The translations under genes were made by a program, and so were the position numbers. Shown piece by piece: positions 12,135 through 43,903 of a stretch of 64,000 nt of DNA. The stretch's first letter is position 1; each line of letters begins with the position of its first letter. The stretch is from Escherichia coli. GTDB taxonomy: Bacteria > Pseudomonadota > Gammaproteobacteria > Enterobacterales > Enterobacteriaceae. Below the pieces are notes generated by a model that worked only from the letters and a program-made list of their open reading frames with translations, was not told the DNA's origin and did not search any database. The DNA is taken from NCBI RefSeq assembly GCF_051903065.1, contig NZ_CP178438.1; one strand, written 5' to 3'.

Positions 12135-12740
12135 CTAAGACTGGAGCAAAGAGGGCGTGTTATTAATTATTCTCCATTTGTTTTGCAACTTCTGGAATAA
12201 TTCAGGCAAGAAAGTTTCTGTTAGCGGAATACCATCCTGAGCATCAGTATTGGAATAGACACCAAAGCGTGCGGGCGCTCGACCGGTCATTATTGCGGCG
12301 CGGGAGGGGCCGGAAACACCGTGTGCCACATAGCCGTTAGTAAAACGTACGCCTTCATCCATTAATGAAAGGAGCGTCGGCGTTGATTTTTGTGCAGCTT
12401 CAATGGCTTTATCTATCCCTATTTTGTAGGTATCGACAACTTCACGATTTTCCATTGTTTTTGGGTCAAAAGATCCCTTATCAAAAGGAAGTTGTCCATA
12501 ACCAAGATCATCCATGGTTAGTACGATAATATTTGGCTTTCCTTTGGTACTGTATTCAGTCGGCGTAAAGTCTGAGAAAGCAACGTTTGTTTTGGTTGCT
12601 TTCAGCTTTACATCATCTGCCGCATGAGCAGCAAATGCAGCCATACCAGATGCCAGTATCAAAGATATCGAGGTACTTACGACACTTTTCTTTAATGCAG
12701 ACTTCATAAATGTTCCTCTTCTTATTGTACTTAATTCCAA
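12135..12740 (-). pseudogene. ydeN: Sulfatase (ydeN-like) N-terminal fragment, truncated after about 180 codons
   Basis: 201-aa ORF with signal peptide and sulfatase N-terminal core (IIVLTMDDLGYGQL); C-terminal tail diverges and stops. Full-length sulfatase is about 560 aa. Confidence 0.6.
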
Positions 12741-13110: not shown

Positions 13111-13872
13111 TCAAATAGCTAAAGCATTCATCGTGTTGCCCGTATTCATACCCATGTGACTTTGACAACGGTACTCCTTAGAAACTCTCTTCGGACTGTT
13201 GCCGAAATGTTTGCGGAACGCATAAATAAAATAAGATGTACTGGCATAACCACATTGTTCGGCAATTTTATTGACTGAACCTTCTACGCGTATCAAATTT
13301 TTTGCGTGCTGCATTCTGGCATCTAATAGAATCTGTGAGAATGTCGTTTGCTCTTGCTTTAGTTTTTTCTTCAACAGGCTTTCACTGATGTACAGGCAGT
13401 CACAAATATCTTTCAGCTTCCATGGGTGCGCCAGCTTCATGTTGACAATATTTCTCACTTTCCCGGAAACGGATAGCACACCGTTAGTTAATAGTGTAAT
13501 GAAACCTTTGCATGCGGCAAATATAGACAGGCAAGAAAAAAGCAAAAGTTCTGAAAAATTATGATGATTGCGTTCTTCCGAGTTGAGATAAGCAATCATT
13601 TCATTAAGCAATCCAGTCGGTACATTTGAAGCACGTAAAAACTTCGCAGGAACAGGCACCGTCACTGTCTGGATGTTAGTGCATTGTAGATATTTTTTAA
13701 TGGTATTTTCATTAAATCCGATTTCTTTAAAATGCCGCTCATAAGGTTCAAAATGTGTACGAACAGCGTTATCTACCATCAGGATCTCGCCGTCAGAGAA
13801 GGCGTAATCTTTATCTAAAATGTTAGCGTTGAAAGCATGATGAATAAATATAACAGAACAAACGAGCGACAT
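13111..13872 (-). CDS. ydeO: AraC-family acid-resistance regulator YdeO
   Basis: 253 aa; C-terminal AraC HTH; position after safA. Confidence 0.9.
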   Translation of the reverse strand: MSLVCSVIFIHHAFNANILDKDYAFSDGEILMVDNAVRTHFEPYERHFKEIGFNENTIKKYLQCTNIQTVTVPVPAKFLRASNVPTGLLNEMIAYLNSEERNHHNFSELLLFSCLSIFAACKGFITLLTNGVLSVSGKVRNIVNMKLAHPWKLKDICDCLYISESLLKKKLKQEQTTFSQILLDARMQHAKNLIRVEGSVNKIAEQCGYASTSYFIYAFRKHFGNSPKRVSKEYRCQSHMGMNTGNTMNALAI

Positions 13873-13945
13873 TTTATCTCCTTAAAACAATAAAGTTTTA
13901 TCGATACTTTTTTAACATTTCATATTTATAATTTGCTGTTTATTT

Positions 13946-14143
13946 TCAGTCTTGCAAACTATTGATAATGAAATGTGTAAGATCTCTTGCAATGCGACCC
14001 ATTTCTGAAATACCCAGCTGATCAATTGCCGAAAAAATGGCTATCAACGTAAGTGTCAGTAATAAGACAACCACAATTACAGACATGATTTCTTTATAGT
14101 TGTCTCTTTGTGTGATTTTATTTTTCACTGTGGTCGCATGCAT
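13946..14143 (-). CDS. safA: Two-component connector SafA (small membrane protein)
   Basis: 65-aa ORF with single TM segment, recognised sequence. Confidence 0.85.
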   Translation of the reverse strand: MHATTVKNKITQRDNYKEIMSVIVVVLLLTLTLIAIFSAIDQLGISEMGRIARDLTHFIINSLQD

Positions 14144-14255
14144 TTCAAATATGTTTATTTAGCGGATAACGTTAAAAATCGTTAATCAGTATGCTTAATA
14201 TAACAGGCTGGAAAAAAGAGGAAATAGGACTGGTGCTTCAGTACTGAGCGGAGTT

Positions 14256-14273
14256 TCTTACAGCTGTAGGCAG
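14256..14273. promoter_or_regulatory. EvgA box upstream of safA-ydeO
   Basis: TTCTTACAgcTGTAGGCA matches the 18-bp EvgA inverted-repeat consensus TTCYTACA-N2-TGTARGAA with one mismatch. Confidence 0.6.
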
Positions 14274-14390: not shown

Positions 14391-14554
14391 TTAATTTGAT
14401 GGTTCTAATTCAACCGGAATACTTTTATAGCCAGGAATGCCACTTAATGGATCGTGGTTATCAAGTGTTAGCATGTGATTCGATTCTGGAAAATAGGTCA
14501 CCAGTGAGCGGTCAGCCATAGGGTAAATGACCACTTTTAATCTATCCATGCGGC
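14391..14554 (-). pseudogene. ydeP: ydeP 3' remnant (last 51 codons plus stop) separated from the gene body by IS1
   Basis: Hand translation of the minus-strand frame continuing across the TSD gives [55 protein letters not shown]; 708 + 51 = 759 aa, the expected YdeP length. Confidence 0.75.
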
Positions 14555-14609
14555 GGTGATGCTGCCAACTTACTGATTTAGTGTATGATGGTGTTTTTGA
14601 GGTGCTCCA

Positions 14610-14885
14610 GTGGCTTCTGTTTCTATCAGCTGTCCCTCCTGTTCAGCTACTGACGGGGTGGTGCGTAACGGCAAAAGCACCGCCGGACATCAGCGCTATC
14701 TCTGCTCTCACTGCCGTAAAACATGGCAACTGCAGTTCACTTACACCGCTTCTCAACCCGGTACGCACCAGAAAATCATTGATATGGCCATGAATGGCGT
14801 TGGATGCCGGGCAACAGCCCGCATTATGGGCGTTGGCCTCAACACGATTTTACGTCACTTAAAAAACTCAGGCCGCAGTCGGTAA
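14610..14885 (+). CDS. insA: IS1 InsA
   Basis: 91-aa [26 protein letters not shown]..., zinc-finger CxxC...CxxC. Confidence 0.95.
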
Positions 14886-15307
14886 CCTCGCGCATACAGC
14901 CGGGCAGTGACGTCATCGTCTGCGCGGAAATGGACGAACAGTGGGGCTATGTCGGGGCTAAATCGCGCCAGCGCTGGCTGTTTTACGCGTATGACAGGCT
15001 CCGGAAGACGGTTGTTGCGCACGTATTCGGTGAACGCACTATGGCGACGCTGGGGCGTCTTATGAGCCTGCTGTCACCCTTTGACGTGGTGATATGGATG
15101 ACGGATGGCTGGCCGCTGTATGAATCCCGCCTGAAGGGAAAGCTGCACGTAATCAGCAAGCGATATACGCAGCGAATTGAGCGGCATAACCTGAATCTGA
15201 GGCAGCACCTGGCACGGCTGGGACGGAAGTCGCTGTCGTTCTCAAAATCGGTGGAGCTGCATGACAAAGTCATCGGGCATTATCTGAACATAAAACACTA
15301 TCAATAA
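14804..15307 (+). CDS. insB: IS1 InsB (expressed as InsAB' by -1 frameshift)
   Basis: 167-aa ORF overlapping insA in the -1 frame. Confidence 0.9.
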
Positions 15308-15322
15308 GTTGGAGTCATTACC

Positions 15323-17447
15323 CCATGCGGCGTGAGCTGCGCTTACCGTCTGGCGTAAGCGCAATAAGATTAACTCTTTCGCCGTTTTTTACACGGCAAA
15401 TTTTAGCTTGTTTAGCACTCATAAAGACCACATCTCGTTGACCGAATACCCCTCGATAGCGATCATCCATACCATAAATCGTCGTGTTGTACTGATCGTG
15501 GCTGCGTACTGTCGCCATGACCAGCTTACTGTTAAACGCTGAAGAGGGATCTTCTAACAGCCCTTTGCTGGTAATGAAATTAGCCTTACCTGACGGCGTC
15601 ATCCAGCGCCTTTCAGCAGCTGCATTTATCAGGTGAAAACCACCGGGATGACGGATGCGCTGGTTATAGTCGGCGAACTCTGGCAGCACAGCTTCAATGT
15701 CGTTGCGAATGCGATCATAATCTTCCACCAGATACTCCCAGGCTACCACGCTCTGGGGTAGTGCTGCCTGTGCGATTCCCGCGACCACTGCACACTCTGA
15801 TTTCAGCATTACACCGGCGGGTTTTAACACGCCACGCGAGGCATGAATCATCGACATTGAATCCTCAACGGTTACCGCCTGCGCACCGCTTTTTTGCATG
15901 TCAATCTCGCTACGTCCCAGAACCGGCAGAATATAGCTATGCCGTGCGGTCAGCAGATGAGAGCGGTTAAGCTTAGTGGCTACGTGTACCGCCAGATCTA
16001 ATTGCGTTAACGGTACAGCGCTCGCTTCCCGATCTGGCATTGCCAGTGCAAAGTTGCCCCCCATGCAGATCAATGCTCGAGCCTGCCCTGTACATATTGC
16101 TTGCATGCTGGCAATTGCAGCATGTCCAGGTGCTTGAGGTGGTGTGAAGCCATAGCGCTCACCCAGGCGAGCCAGAAACTCTGCAGACGGTTTCTCGGTG
16201 ATACCGACGGTTCGGTCGCCCTGTACATTAGAGTGGCCACGTAGTGGGCAGATACCCGCACCAGGCTTGCCAATGTTACCTTTCATCAACAGCAGATTGA
16301 CCAGTTGCTGTACATTCTGGGTACCATGTTCGTGCTGAGTGATCCCCATTCCGTAACAGATAATGGTTCGTTCGGCAGCGGCATATGCATCAGCCAGTTC
16401 GGCGATTTGTGTCTGACTTAGTCCAGAAATACGTTCGATATCTTTCCACTCGGAATTGAGCACGTCACGGCGTAGCTCGTCAAAGCCGACGGTATGCGTT
16501 TGAATAAATTCGTCATCCAGCAATGAGGGCCGACCTGCGGCGCTTGCAGCATCATCGCGCTCAATTAACAGGCGCATCATCCCCTTGAGCAACGCCATAT
16601 CACCACCAATGCGCACGTTATAGTAGGCACTGGCCAACTGAGTCTCAGAGTTCGTCAGCATTTCAAACGGGTTTTGCGGTGCGGTAAATCGCTCCAGGCC
16701 ACGTTCCTGTAGAGGATTGATGGCGATCATTTTCGCTCCCCGTTTCACTAAAGCGCGCAACGAAGTCAGCATGCGAGGGTGGTTTGTACCAGGGTTATGC
16801 CCAATGCAAATGACTAAATCGCACTTCTCAAAGTCTTCCAGCAACACGGTCCCTTTACCTACACCGATACTCGCTGCCAAACCCACGCTTGTCGGTTCAT
16901 GGCACATGTTGGAGCAGTCGGGAAAGTTATTGCTCCCGTATTCACGGGCAAAAAGCTGATAAAGAAAGGCAGCCTCATTGGAAGTGCGGCCCGAAGTATA
17001 GAATTCAACCTGATTGGGATCACTATAGCTTTGAAGGCGTGCGCCAATTTCATCGAAAGCTTGTTGCCAGCTTAATGGCTTGTAACAGTCGCTGACGGCA
17101 TCATATTTCAAAGGCTGAGTGAGTCGCCCCGCAGCCTCAAGCTCGTGGTCTCCCCAGGTAAGTAATGATTGAACCGTATTCTCAGCAAAGAAAGAGGCGT
17201 TTACCTGCTTATCCGTGACTTCCCAGGCGATTGCTTTTGCGCCGTTTTCACAAATGTCGAATGACGCACTGTGCTTAGGATCTGGCCATGCACAACCCGG
17301 ACAGTCAAAGCCCTCTGGCTTATTCATGTCAAACATGGCAATAACATCCTGGCGTATATCCATCTGCTTACGTACTGCATTCGCTACGGATTTAACAGCA
17401 CCCCAACCACCGGCAGCTCCCTGGTAGGATTCAATTTTTTTCTTCAT
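15323..17447 (-). pseudogene. ydeP: ydeP (molybdopterin oxidoreductase, acid resistance) 5' part, truncated by IS1
   Basis: ORF 15318-17447 encodes the first 708 residues of YdeP and then terminates on a stop codon supplied by the IS1 end. Confidence 0.85.
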
Positions 17448-17690
17448 CTACTTATCCTGTGTGGAAATGAATTATTAGGATTTGTAATAGCGATGATGCA
17501 CAGTACATACAAAGGGATTATCGCCAACATGGATATATAAGAGTAGGGGACTACTCTCTTTCTATTTTTAATCTATTATCGTTAAACAATAGATTAAATA
17601 CGATAAGGTAAGCATCATCTCTCATAGTGTTTAAATTAACATATTTTTTAATATAAAAAATAAGACTCTGGCTTCAATTGTGCGCGGATT

Positions 17691-17710
17691 TTCTTACAGG
17701 TGTAGGATAA
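17691..17710. promoter_or_regulatory. EvgA box upstream of ydeP
   Basis: TTCTTACAggTGTAGGAT(AA) matches the EvgA consensus; about 245 bp upstream of the ydeP start. Confidence 0.6.
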
Positions 17711-17780
17711 TAGCCTTCACAAAATAATTATCCGCGCAATTTTCGTGAATGGAGCGCATAGACCAATGTCAAAATCACAA

Positions 17781-18695
17781 TTATTCATAGATAAAAGTGA
17801 CACCAATGACTGACTGGACGGTTCCGGCTGAAACCTTGTTTCCTGTTTGTCCATAGGTTGCGCTTAAACCCAGAGGTACTTTGCTTTTATTTACTGTCCC
17901 CAGGGAGACATTTTCTCCCGTAGCCAGTATTTTTCCATTACGCATCAGAGAGACACCCACTCCCGATGCTTTTGTTGCATCTGGTGCTGTGTTAGCAAAC
18001 ACTTGTCTAGCACTGTCAGTGGTAGCACCCGAAAGATAAAATGAGAGCTTTTGTTCACTTGAGCAATATACGCCAAGGGGGATTTCTGCGCTTCCAGGAA
18101 AGTCCGGGAGATTCACGGTGACATTACGACTATCAACAGTGCAGCCGCCTGTTGGCATAACAACACTGTTATTTGAAATAATATTCCACGTAAAATTACG
18201 CGGATTTCCGCTTCCTAACGTGGCAATTTTATACATATGAATACGGGCAATAACTTCCCCGGCTTTTATGACAACTCCACCGGCCGCCCCGACTGGGGTA
18301 ATATAGAGTTTTAACGGTAATGGCATCGGTGTCTTATCACCAATATCCAATACGTTTGTATTTGTCGTCAACGGGAAGGGGTAGGTCACATTATTCCAGT
18401 ACAGCGATCCTTTATATGACTGTAGAGAGCCTGCGAAAGCTGAGCCTTGTACCAGGTTTATATGATCAGTGTCGTACCAGCCGCCGTAATCATTCCAGCA
18501 ACTTATATGCTGAGACAAGTCTACAACCAGATTCTGGCCCGGCTGTATTACAGGGTCGAGATTAACATAAACAGAGGTTGTACCAGCTCCAATACTTGAC
18601 CCGCCATCGACATTACAACTGAAGGCAAAAACTTTGCCTGCCATTAATAGAAGATAAATACCGAACAGGACCTTTATACTGATTGTTTTACCCAT
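17781..18695 (-). CDS. ydeQ: Fimbrial tip adhesin, FimH-like (YdeQ/FmlH-type)
   Basis: 304-aa ORF with signal peptide; last gene of the chaperone-usher operon. Confidence 0.8.
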
Positions 18696-19814: not shown

Positions 19815-22466
19815 TTAGCGACAGATTGCTGTCTGCTGGTTCAGTAAGGTTCCAGGAGAGACTTCCGGAAGCTTGTACTCGACAATACAGTTTGAGTTTT
19901 TATCATTGCCCCATGAAACCTGTAATTTCCCTGACTGTGGAAGTCCAGTCAGATAAACCTGACCGTTTTCTGCGACAATGCTGCCATTTTTATTCTCTCC
20001 GTGTGTGACAATTGCACCGAATGGAACGCTCTTATTACCGTACTTCAACGTCATTAATACTTTTCCGCCGATTTGTGCATTAAATGTTGCTCTGGCAATA
20101 GCACCGTGAGTTGGGATGACAGTGACCACGGTTTCATCCAGTTCAACATTATCTGCAAGAGAATTCGCGTTAAGAGCGACACGATTTTCTCTATATTCTG
20201 TCGCAAATGGTAATATGGCATAGCCACGCCAGTCGGTATGAATTCCGGTCTGGTTCTCTATTTTGACATTATCAGCGCCAGGAGCCTTAACCAGAACCAT
20301 TGTGTCGCCCAGCGGCTGTCCAAAGGTGATGCCATCAGCATGAGCAATAATCCCACCACTCATTCCGTAATAAATCTGGCTGCTGTCACCACTCCGACTG
20401 TAACCGACATTAGTATTACCGTAAGCTCCACGATAATTAAGAGAACTGTAACCACTGGTGCCAGACGATGTATTACCTCCGTGGGTGTTACCGACCTGAA
20501 CGCTATAATTCAGGTTATTATCCGGCAGCAGAGTGCCATAAACCCCCGATAGATTGGTCATGCCGCCTTTCAAATCGTTTGACATACTGTAACTGGCGTT
20601 TGAATTACGAAATGCCGACTGACTGTCTGTACGCATCCAATGACTGAAGGGAACATTAAGCGTAAAAGCGAGTAAATGATCCCGATCGTTTTGCCATATA
20701 TTATTGGAATAGCTGTAATTCAGCGAAGTCGTAATATCACCAAACGGCACATTTAATCCAAATGATATTTGCTGGTCGCTGCGTGACGTGTTCCAGTAAC
20801 TTTGGCGACTGGCACTGAAAAATGTCGTACCGTAATTTCCAAGCTGCTGAGAGATGCTTATTTGTTCCTGACCACGCTTACTGTAGAACAGATTAAAATA
20901 ATCAATAAATTGTGTCTGCTCATTGCTGTCTCCGGTAGGAGGCTTGACGGTGTAACCACTCATTCGACTGTAGGCACTGTCGGATAAGTTATAAAAACCT
21001 TGCGTAGAATAGCGATATCCTGCGACCTGGATATTGGTTCCTGTCTGGTAGAAGGATTTGCTGTAGACGGATTTAACCGATTGCCCGCTGTGACGGGTGC
21101 CATCTGCAAGTGTCGTATTGGCCTGCGTGATATCGAAAGAAAAGGCACCAAAAAGTCCTAAATCTTTACCAATACCAAGGTTGAAGGCCTGATAATCTTC
21201 TGCAATTTGCATTCCGCCATAAGGTGTCCAGTTTCCTTCCAGTCCATGCATCAAGCTACCTTGTATGAACCTGGGGGAGCTTTGCAGGTTATTTCCACTA
21301 CGATATTCCCCCATGGCAAGCGCATAACGCGTATATCCAGCACGTTGGAGAACCGGAACAGACGAATAAGGAACATATAATGTCTGAATACTGCCGTCTG
21401 CCTCTTTTATGGTTACTTGCAGATCACCACCATTGGCCGCAGAGTTGATATCATCAATAGTAAAAGGGCCGGGTGGAACAGTAGTCTGATAAACATCGTA
21501 TCCGTTCTGTTTTACACTCACTTGTGCGGTGCCACGGGCAATACCATGAATCACCGGAGCGAAACCATGTTGGCTATCGGGCAACATCGCTTCTGTTGAA
21601 TTTATTTTGAGGCCACGAAAGTTCACACTATCAAAAATATCGCCATCGGTATAACTATCACCTACCGTTAACCGTGAGCGTAAGGGAATAATGTCACGTT
21701 CAGCCGACGTATTGATATGCTGCCATTTATTGCTGTCAGATGAATTGCTACTCCCACTGTTATAACTCCACGTTGAGTTATCGCGCAGTCGCCAACTACC
21801 AATGTTGATGCCACTCTGTAAATTCAAATATGCATAGTTTGATTTTCCTGCATTATGGTTACTACGATTATTAATAGAATTACCATTAAAACTATAGTTT
21901 AGAAGCCCTGCATTTATTCCTTCTTCCCACAGATCAGGAGAAACATAGCCGCGAGCCATTCTGCCAACATAAATTTGCGGAACGGAGAGTGACAGATGTT
22001 GCTGACCAACATCAAACTCAGTTGATGCGTCGACCAAACGATCCTGAAGTGGTGTGCATGCGCTGTTGTCCGGCACATGTTTTTCTGCTGAATGTTCCTT
22101 ATTGTCTAATAACGCAGATTTTTTTATGCCAAGACTGACAAGAAGATCTGTACTCAGGCATGGGATGAGATCTGCATTATTATCATCTGCAATAAAAGTA
22201 ATATCCCGACTAGTCATAAATTCGTCGTTCAAATAAATGTCGACCCGATATGTACCAGGTGGTGCCTCGCGTCCCTTAGTAAAGGCGGATAAATCGACAG
22301 ATTCAGCAAGATCATTGCTTAAAAATCGTGGATTAAAATAATACTCTGCGTAAACGGGAAATACCGCAGTTGCTAAGCCAAGGGCAATCGTAAGCCGTGC
22401 AAAGCGAGGCAGTAGTAACACCTGATGCATACGATATGCCTTAAATGCGGCACGAAAGGCTGTCAT
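19815..22466 (-). CDS. ydeT: Fimbrial usher (FimD-like), full length
   Basis: 883-aa ORF with usher N-terminal, barrel and C-terminal domains; a pseudogene fragment in K-12 (memory) but a single intact ORF here. The true start may be the internal MHQVLLL. Confidence 0.8.
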   Translation of the reverse strand: MTAFRAAFKAYRMHQVLLLPRFARLTIALGLATAVFPVYAEYYFNPRFLSNDLAESVDLSAFTKGREAPPGTYRVDIYLNDEFMTSRDITFIADDNNADLIPCLSTDLLVSLGIKKSALLDNKEHSAEKHVPDNSACTPLQDRLVDASTEFDVGQQHLSLSVPQIYVGRMARGYVSPDLWEEGINAGLLNYSFNGNSINNRSNHNAGKSNYAYLNLQSGINIGSWRLRDNSTWSYNSGSSNSSDSNKWQHINTSAERDIIPLRSRLTVGDSYTDGDIFDSVNFRGLKINSTEAMLPDSQHGFAPVIHGIARGTAQVSVKQNGYDVYQTTVPPGPFTIDDINSAANGGDLQVTIKEADGSIQTLYVPYSSVPVLQRAGYTRYALAMGEYRSGNNLQSSPRFIQGSLMHGLEGNWTPYGGMQIAEDYQAFNLGIGKDLGLFGAFSFDITQANTTLADGTRHSGQSVKSVYSKSFYQTGTNIQVAGYRYSTQGFYNLSDSAYSRMSGYTVKPPTGDSNEQTQFIDYFNLFYSKRGQEQISISQQLGNYGTTFFSASRQSYWNTSRSDQQISFGLNVPFGDITTSLNYSYSNNIWQNDRDHLLAFTLNVPFSHWMRTDSQSAFRNSNASYSMSNDLKGGMTNLSGVYGTLLPDNNLNYSVQVGNTHGGNTSSGTSGYSSLNYRGAYGNTNVGYSRSGDSSQIYYGMSGGIIAHADGITFGQPLGDTMVLVKAPGADNVKIENQTGIHTDWRGYAILPFATEYRENRVALNANSLADNVELDETVVTVIPTHGAIARATFNAQIGGKVLMTLKYGNKSVPFGAIVTHGENKNGSIVAENGQVYLTGLPQSGKLQVSWGNDKNSNCIVEYKLPEVSPGTLLNQQTAICR

Positions 22467-41809: not shown

Positions 41810-42100
41810 ATGCACGTCACACTGGTTGAAATTAACGTTCATGAAGACAAGGTTGACGAGTTTATCGAAGTTTTTCGCCAGAACCACCTGGGCTCGGTAC
41901 AGGAAGAAGGCAATTTGCGCTTCGATGTCTTACAGGACCCGGAAGTGAATTCGCGCTTTTATATCTACGAAGCCTATAAAGATGAAGACGCAGTGGCGTT
42001 CCATAAAACCACGCCCCACTACAAAACCTGTGTCGCGAAACTGGAATCTTTAATGACCGGGCCGCGTAAAAAACGTCTGTTCAATGGGTTGATGCCGTGA
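41810..42100 (+). CDS. lsrG: LsrG (phospho-AI-2 isomerase, ABM monooxygenase fold)
   Basis: ORF from 41774, but the protein matches LsrG from [14 protein letters not shown] (96 aa). Confidence 0.9.
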
Positions 42101-42585
42101 GGCGAATTTATCCGGTGCGCCGTAAAACCCCGTCCTTCAGGGCGGGGATATAAGGCGCGGTTTTCCACCTGACCAGGTGTTTGCTGTTGTTCAATGTATT
42201 GGCGGATGACGGATATTGGCGCACCTCCGCAGCTACTGGCAAAATAGCCAGGACTCCACAAAACGCCTTTGTAGTAATACCTGACTGCAATATCTGGTCG
42301 ATCTCGTCGCAGTAACCTACCTGATACGCTTTTGAGGCTGTTTACCAGACTGGATATCGCCAGTTTGGGAGGATAGTTAATTAACAAATGGACGTGATCT
42401 GGTTCGCCATCCATTTCAACCAGTTCAGCTTCAAAATCAGCACATACATTTGAAAAGTAAGTGCGTAGTTTTTCTGTCGCGTCATGGTCAAAAATCTGGC
42501 GTCGGTATCTGGTGACAAAGACCATGTGAACATGCTTCAGGAAAACACAATGCCTTCCACGCCGGATATCTGTTTCTTTTTTCAC
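42019..42585 (-). CDS. tnpA: IS200/IS605 TnpA (Y1 HUH tyrosine transposase); conserved core about 42180-42585
   Basis: HUH motif DHVHLL and catalytic-Tyr region [15 protein letters not shown]; the ORF lacks a stop at the expected point and continues antisense into lsrG. Confidence 0.7.
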
Positions 42586-43903
42586 AGACCAAAATATAAT
42601 TTGACCTGTGAAACGACTACAGGCATTTAAATTCCAGTTAAGACCCGGTGGTCAACAGGAGCGTGAAATGAGGCGCTTCGCAGGCGCATGTCGTTTCGTT
42701 TTCAATCGTGCTCTGGCACGTCAGAATGAGAATCATGAGGCCGGTAATAAATACATCCCTTACGGGAAAATGGCTTCCTGGCTGGTTGAGTGGAAAAATG
42801 CCACTGAAACGCAATGGCTTAAAGATGCCCCGTCACAGCCATTGCAACAGTCACTGAAAGACCTTGAGTGGGCTTACAAAAACTTCTTCCAGAAGCGGGC
42901 TGCTTTTCCCCGATTCAAAAAGCGGGGACAGAATGATGCATTCCGCTACCCGCAGGGCGTTAAGCTCGATCAGGAAAACAGCCGTATTTTTCTGCCGAAA
43001 CTGGGCTGGATGCGCTACCGGAATAGCCGTCAGGTCACGGGTGTTGTGAAAAATGTCACGGTCAGCCAGTCCTGCGGTAAGTGGCACATCAGTATTCAGA
43101 CAGAAAGTGAAGTATCAACTCCGGTTCACCCTTCAGCATCAATGATCGGGCTGGATGCTGGCGTGGCTAAACTCGCCACGCTGTCAGATGGCACAGTCTT
43201 TGACCCTGTAAACAGTTTTCAGAAAAACCAGAAGAAGCTGGCGAGACTTCAGCGACAGTTCAGCCGCAAGGTCAAATTCAGCAACAACTGGCAGAAGCAG
43301 AAACGCAAAATACAGCGACTGCATTCCCGTATCGCAAATATCCGCAGGGACTACCTTCACAAAGTCACAACGACCGTCAGCAAAAACCACGCAATGATAG
43401 TCATTGAGGATTTGAAGGTCAGCAACATGTCAAAGTCAGCAGCGGGTACGGTCAGCCAGCCGGGGCGCAATGTCCGGGCAAAATCAGGTTTAAACCGTTC
43501 GATACTGGATCAGGGCTGGTATGAAATGCGTCGCCAGCTTGAGTACAAGCAGCTCTGGTGTGGCGGTCAGGTGCTTGCTGTTCCGCCAGCGTACACAAGC
43601 CAGCGTTGCGCGTGCTGTGGTCATACAGCGAAAGAAAATCGCGTGTCACAAAGTAAATTCAGATGCCAGGTATGTGGATATACAGCGAACGCCGATGTAA
43701 ACGGCGCTCGTAACATTTTAGCGGCGGGGCACGCCGTTCTTGCCTGTGGAGGGATGGTGCAGTCAGGCCGCCCGTTGAAGCAGGAACCCACCGAAATGAT
43801 TCAGGCGACAGCCTGAACGTAGCAGGATCCTCGTCATTCAGGGCGTGGAGGATGTCAACAGTTTTATCTACAATTGGGGTAACGCGCTGACGGGAGTAAA
43901 AAA
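42101..43903. mobile_element. IS200/IS605-family insertion element (divergent tnpA and tnpB); ends approximate
   Basis: Y1/HUH transposase and TnpB encoded back to back, filling the interval between the lsrG stop and the tam start codon. Confidence 0.6.
42608..43816 (+). CDS. tnpB: TnpB (IS605 OrfB family, RuvC-like RNA-guided endonuclease)
   Basis: 402 aa; RuvC-I IGLDAGV, RuvC-II IVIEDL, Ruv[14 protein letters not shown], and zinc finger CACCGH...CQVCG. Confidence 0.8.

Follow-up and report, generated by a model that had tools for sequence, protein, structure and literature searches.

A predicted EvgA operator precedes a recently IS1-disrupted ydeP gene in a strain of Escherichia coli

Judged from its sequence, the 18-bp inverted repeat in front of ydeP in this strain is predicted to be the ordinary, already-described site at which EvgA binds to the ydeP promoter of E. 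coli, and EvgA is likely to bind to it here as well. The whole explanation proposed for the locus, namely that a natural EvgA operator of ydeP stands before a ydeP gene that was recently broken by IS1, is considered highly probable. What is already known is the EvgA operator of ydeP, which is present here as a natural sequence variant, while the part that is specific to this strain is the recent knockout by IS1. The features on which the argument draws are collected in Table 1, and the window refers throughout to the whole 64-kb stretch of DNA that was analysed.

Table 1. Positions in the window of the predicted operator, the promoter elements, the insertion and the neighbouring genes
Feature	Position	Strand	Basis
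EvgA box, 18-bp inverted repeat	17691-17708	-	Consensus match, shuffles, K-12 orthology, conservation
-35 hexamer TTGAAG of the ydeP promoter	17672-17677	-	Scan and published hexamers; invariant in 10 E. coli
-10 hexamer TATATT of the ydeP promoter	17650-17655	-	Scan and published hexamers
Truncated ydeP' reading frame, 708 native codons followed by GGG TAA	15318-17447	-	List of open reading frames; NCBIfam NF007406
Target-site duplication of 9 bp, right copy, CCATGCGGC	15323-15331	.	Empty-site comparison
IS1, 768 bp, insA/insB on the plus strand, convergent with ydeP	14555-15322	+	IS1 ends, reading frames, empty-site comparison
Target-site duplication of 9 bp, left copy, CCATGCGGC	14546-14554	.	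Single copy at the 23CRST027 empty site
Orphan 3' remnant of ydeP, last 51 codons and stop, undamaged	14391-14546	-	Identical to the intact allele
Second EvgA box, TTCTTACAGCTGTAGGCA, 112 bp upstream of safA	14255-14272	-	Consensus match; identical in K-12
safA (13946-14143) and ydeO (13111-13872), both intact	13111-14143	-	Open reading frames, annotation of relatives

The element that interrupts ydeP corresponds to elements that are annotated in related genomes as IS1-like and of the IS1A family, and the target-site duplication that flanks it is perfect (9/9 bp). The insertion falls at codon 709, where the junction between ydeP and IS1 reads CTATCCATGCGGCGGTGATGCTGCC. The terminal GGG TAA of the shortened frame spans this junction, with the second G of the glycine codon and the TAA stop being supplied by the end of IS1. 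On sequence grounds, the remaining frame can be regarded as a truncated ydeP and thus as a pseudogene. Indeed, it matches the NCBIfam equivalog model for YdeP (NF007406, FdhF/YdeP molybdopterin oxidoreductase) with 1708.9 bits against a cut-off of 1473, over profile positions 1-708 of 759 only.

In full-length YdeP, Pfam places a Molydop_binding domain at residues 642-751 (E = 4.4e-5); this match is no longer detected by Pfam in the truncated protein, in which the Molybdopterin domain match (108-485) is still present. The 51 residues that were lost represent about 40% of the C-terminal molybdopterin-dinucleotide-binding domain, an extent that is approximate because the domain match scores 23.9 bits against a curated cut-off of 26.8. 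The earlier note on this DNA had described the gene product as truncated by IS1, which is confirmed by the 708 residues followed by glycine and a stop and by the disappearance of the C-terminal Pfam match. The nearest solved structures to YdeP are formate dehydrogenase alpha subunits, one of which aligns through residue 759, and the truncated YdeP is most likely to be inactive owing to the loss of the C-terminal part that caps the cofactor.

The EvgA acid-resistance circuit has been struck independently by mobile elements in other strains, both in ydeP and in evgA. The ISSen4 copy in ydeP of GPEC1446 resembles the present case in that a mobile element inactivates the gene while the promoter is kept, and differs from it in both the element and the point of insertion; it had been considered as a mirror case located in the promoter, a reading that was rejected since ISSen4 lies within the ydeP coding region. 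Six genomes carry IS1 elsewhere in or near ydeP, again with ydeP inactivated and the promoter in place, at positions other than the one described here. A copy of IS1 is also found inside evgA in NCM3722-type strains.

Comparison with close relatives indicates that the insertion is very recent, later than a shallow split from a near-clonal relative. The 5' part of ydeP and its promoter are 100% identical to those of 23CRST027 and 23CRST031, two complete genomes in which ydeP is intact. At the empty site of 23CRST027 CCATGCGGC occurs once, and removal in silico of IS1 together with one copy of the duplication leaves 0 mismatches to this genome over 7,668 bp. Along about 63 kb the window differs from 23CRST027 by three SNPs, at positions 964, 32402 and 59519, one of which lies inside a second IS1. 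Since a relative with an empty site differs by only these three SNPs, and no mismatch is left after excision, the insertion postdates a very shallow split.

The distribution of the insertion was assessed from its junction at codon 709, which was found in none of the 5,426 complete E. coli genomes searched; the six complete-genome records that cover the junction query have IS1 placed elsewhere and do so as three joined pieces over longer spans. By exact-protein look-up, the 709-residue product was found in one draft assembly only, GCA_036912935.1, the contig of which shows 100% identity along 5,235 bp and breaks off 110 bp into IS1. Short-read assemblies characteristically stop within IS copies. 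An origin in Shigella, which the absence from complete E. coli genomes might suggest, is rejected because only three SNPs separate the window from E. coli 23CRST027. The disruption had earlier been called recent, a conclusion that is upheld by the identity over 7,668 bp, the three SNPs, the perfect duplication and the absence of the junction from all 5,426 complete genomes. The reasoning by which it had been reached, from the intact box to the recency of the insertion, is on the other hand weak, as a site of 18 bp survives for very long by chance alone.

The box might instead have been kept by continuing selection rather than by the recency of the event, either because the truncated YdeP is still active or because readthrough from the ydeP promoter into safA-ydeO is of use. 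One paper does treat ydeP-safA-ydeO as an operon, and 708 of the 759 residues of YdeP are kept, including the whole catalytic Molybdopterin domain match. This explanation is nevertheless unlikely, since three SNPs in about 63 kb relative to the empty-site relative leave no time for neutral decay, so that selection is not needed to account for an intact box. Moreover, safA-ydeO owns a separate box and promoter, and IS1, which is classically polar, lies between the ydeP promoter and safA and would be expected to stop readthrough.

An artefact of laboratory passage or of assembly, as a second alternative to a natural and recent insertion, is very unlikely. The absence of the insertion from the complete genomes would be in keeping with such an origin, as would the activity of IS1 during storage and culture, but the perfect 9-bp duplication is the mark of genuine transposition, and the separate draft GCA_036912935.1 has an equal junction, although it may derive from the same isolate.

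With the insertion thus read as natural and recent, the site that it has left untouched can be considered in its own right. On the plus strand the box is TTCTTACAGGTGTAGGAT, flanked by gcgcggat on the left and by aatagcc on the right, and in the sense of ydeP it reads ATCCTACACCTGTAAGAA, with a perfect half-site, TTCTTACA, on the promoter-proximal side. The earlier note had given the span as 17691-17710; the site is indeed present there, whereas the true box, 17691-17708, is two bases shorter. EvgA reportedly recognizes an 18-bp inverted repeat with the consensus TTCYTACA-N2-TGTARGAA, and the form used here was checked empirically on EvgA targets of K-12. The ydeP box agrees with this consensus (TTCYTACANNTGTARGAA) at 17 of the 18 positions, the sole mismatch being the last base. 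When one mismatch at most is allowed, the 64-kb window holds two matches only, which are the ydeP box and, at 14255-14272, the safA box. At this threshold no match at all arose in 100 shuffles of the window that preserved its dinucleotides. With up to three mismatches the identical pair of boxes is returned, against 0.69 matches expected.

The safA box has the same orientation as the ydeP box and carries the same perfect half-site, TTCTTACA, on its promoter-proximal side. The two had been described as nearly identical, and they do share 15 of 18 bases, differing at spacer base 10 and at outer bases 17 and 18. They also differ in their distance from the start codon, which is 112 bp at safA and 244 bp at ydeP (ATG at 17447, minus strand), and the genes behind the safA box are intact. 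According to the literature, safA-ydeO is expressed from an EvgA-regulated promoter.

A scan with the consensus promoter returned one minus-strand promoter, TTGAAG-16-TATATT, and the same hexamers and spacing are listed for ydeP by Shimada et al., with H-NS noted at the ydeP spacer (PMC3946193). The box lies upstream of the -35 hexamer, from which it is separated by 13 bp. Transcription of ydeP would probably start near 17643, about 7 nt past the -10 hexamer, and with this start the centre of the box would lie at about -56 and the leader would measure about 196 nt. The operator, the -35 and -10 hexamers and this leader are all unchanged in the strain, and when 17300-17900, which includes the leader, was scanned against Rfam, no known family was recovered, so that nothing marks the leader as a described riboregulator. 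A passage of PMC8174306 names ydeP as a direct EvgA target, citing Itou et al. (2009), and in the literature ydeP is described as directly regulated by EvgA, as induced fast and strongly by acid and as a standard reporter of EvgS/EvgA. RcsB is likewise needed for the induction of ydeP (PMC7174508).

The consensus also performs well at other EvgA targets of K-12. In the 19 kb around evgAS it finds four matches, against 0.29 expected, a number that was reached by none of 200 shuffles. All four are intergenic: two precede yfdX, one precedes frc and the fourth occupies the interval that separates emrK from evgA. EvgA is reported to bind inverted repeats upstream of yfdX and yfdWUVE (PMC3720670). 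The emrK, frc (yfdW) and yfdX repeats have the architecture of the ydeP box, TTCYTACA-N2-TGTARGAA, with 0-3 mismatches, and differ from it in serving other genes, the frc site being a perfect palindrome. In the ydeO-ydeP region of K-12 the consensus recovers the safA and ydeP sites, together with one match with three mismatches inside ydeO that is taken as a chance occurrence. Promoter scans at safA, frc, emrK and yfdX did not yield a common spacing between box and -35 hexamer, which is attributed to the weak hexamers of these activator-dependent promoters.

The whole ydeP-ydeQ spacer (333 bp) aligns to that of K-12 without gaps and with about 99% identity, and the K-12 ydeP site occupies the equal position in it, with equal promoter hexamers and leader and 17 of 18 box bases in common. 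The K-12 box, TTCTTACAGGTGTAGGCT, has two mismatches to the consensus, whereas the box in the window has one. The difference resides at position 17707, the outer base 17 of the distal half-site, which is A in the window and C in K-12 (GGAT and GGCT, respectively). As a consequence, the distal half-site of the window is one step nearer to the consensus than that of K-12, and the weaker operator may be that of K-12, from which the characterization of the site stems.

Conservation was evaluated in the ydeP-ydeQ spacers of ten diverse E. coli, which are 93-100% identical to that of the window. In this set the cores CCTACA and TGTAAGAA are invariant, no variation is seen across the proximal half-site, both promoter hexamers and the bases that join them, and the variation within the 18-mer is limited to the 2-bp spacer (CC, CT or TC in the sense of ydeP) and to outer base 17. 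Such a combination of fixed half-site cores and a variable spacer would be anticipated for an operator that is bound by a dimer and whose spacer is not read. Population counts were made with 31-mers that had to match without error over the entire box; the window variant was found in at least 1276 genomes, the K-12 variant in at least 1747 and the spacer variant typical of O157 in at least 1381. Since the window and K-12 variants are both common, the difference at 17707 is a standing polymorphism and not a sign of decay. Besides K-12 and BL21, at least 1745 other genomes have C at 17707. A K-12-type ydeP promoter and ydeP start also occur at positions 2040-2400 of JARKOR010000108.1, a 13-kb contig assigned to a 'Candidatus Nanosynbacter' metagenome-assembled genome, which is almost certainly E. 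coli DNA that was binned wrongly.

The EvgA box is bracketed by a perfect 9-bp inverted repeat, TGCGCGGAT and ATCCGCGCA, at 17681-17689 and 17730-17738. The arms lie 40 nt apart, are rich in G+C within a spacer rich in A+T and are kept in the ten diverse E. coli with the exception of one SNP, and a single nucleotide separates the proximal arm from the box. This repeat could be the site of a second factor or a structural element. In addition, the segment 17678-17698, which comprises the proximal half-site and its flank and reads TGTAAGAAAATCC in the sense of ydeP, presumably resembles an RcsB-type half-site, so that a composite EvgA/RcsB site is conceivable there as a candidate.

That the box is a chance resemblance or the site of a regulator other than EvgA is scarcely credible: RcsB is required for ydeP induction, EvgA and RcsB are both members of the NarL family with related half-sites and a conserved 9-bp inverted repeat surrounds the box, but none of the 100 shuffles produced a match, the orthologous K-12 promoter is reported to be directly regulated by EvgA, the consensus occurs at other EvgA targets more often than expected and the conservation agrees with an operator for a dimer, the spacer of which is free to vary. 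The assignment of the site to EvgA and ydeP, as first put forward in the earlier note, is thus sustained by orthology to K-12, by the adjacent published hexamers, by operator-like conservation and by the literature on EvgA regulation.

If the site operates as an EvgA operator in this strain, mild acid would be sensed through EvgS, leading to phosphorylation of EvgA, the response regulator of the acid-sensing EvgS/EvgA two-component system, a dimer of which would bind to 17691-17708 and activate the weak sigma-70 promoter of ydeP by recruiting RNA polymerase. The location of the box, about 56 bp before the probable start and 13 bp before a weak -35 hexamer, fits a dimeric activator that recruits RNA polymerase. 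This scheme assumes a functional evgAS, which is located outside the 64-kb window; of 5426 E. coli genomes, 5398 have evgA, and a few carry an IS1 within the gene.

The resulting transcript would comprise the long leader and ydeP' and would then run antisense into IS1, and its product would be YdeP without the last 51 residues. Readthrough from the ydeP promoter towards safA-ydeO would be cut by IS1, on the premise that the element is polar here as well. Since the box and promoter of safA-ydeO lie downstream of IS1, the cascade from EvgA through YdeO to GadE should survive by way of that box, and the loss would be confined to the branch of acid resistance that runs through YdeP. Deletion of ydeP in K-12 abolishes glutamate-independent acid survival according to the literature, and the present strain would be expected to lack the part of acid survival that is independent of glutamate and dependent on YdeP. 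Together with 23CRST027, the strain would constitute a natural near-isogenic pair for assessing the contribution of YdeP to acid resistance. Further consequences can be imagined, in which transcription from the ydeP promoter antisense into IS1 gives EvgA an influence on the transposase or on the kinetics of safA-ydeO, or in which a truncated YdeP made in acid is dominant or toxic; these are highly improbable, and no support for them is found in the sequence.

A second IS1 copy lies at 31959-32726, where it splits an autotransporter gene of the ECSE_1600 family from its ESPR signal-peptide segment, the two flanks being at 26915-31956 and at about 32728-32898. No target-site duplication is found at this copy, which suggests an adjacent deletion or rearrangement. 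This copy is common to 23CRST027 and is thus older than the IS1 in ydeP, from which it differs at one base (position 558). At 12135-12740, between yddA and ydeO, a fragment marks the sulfatase genes ydeM and ydeN, which are largely deleted in the lineage; it is annotated in 23CRST027 as a partial sulfatase-like pseudogene. At 42019-43816, between lsrG and tam, a remnant of an IS200/IS605 tnpA adjoins an intact gene for a TnpB (InsQ) of 402 amino acids. Finally, the fimbrial usher gene at 19815-22466, the ydeT ortholog, is full length and encodes 883 amino acids, while the ydeT annotation in K-12 covers about 1.15 kb only.
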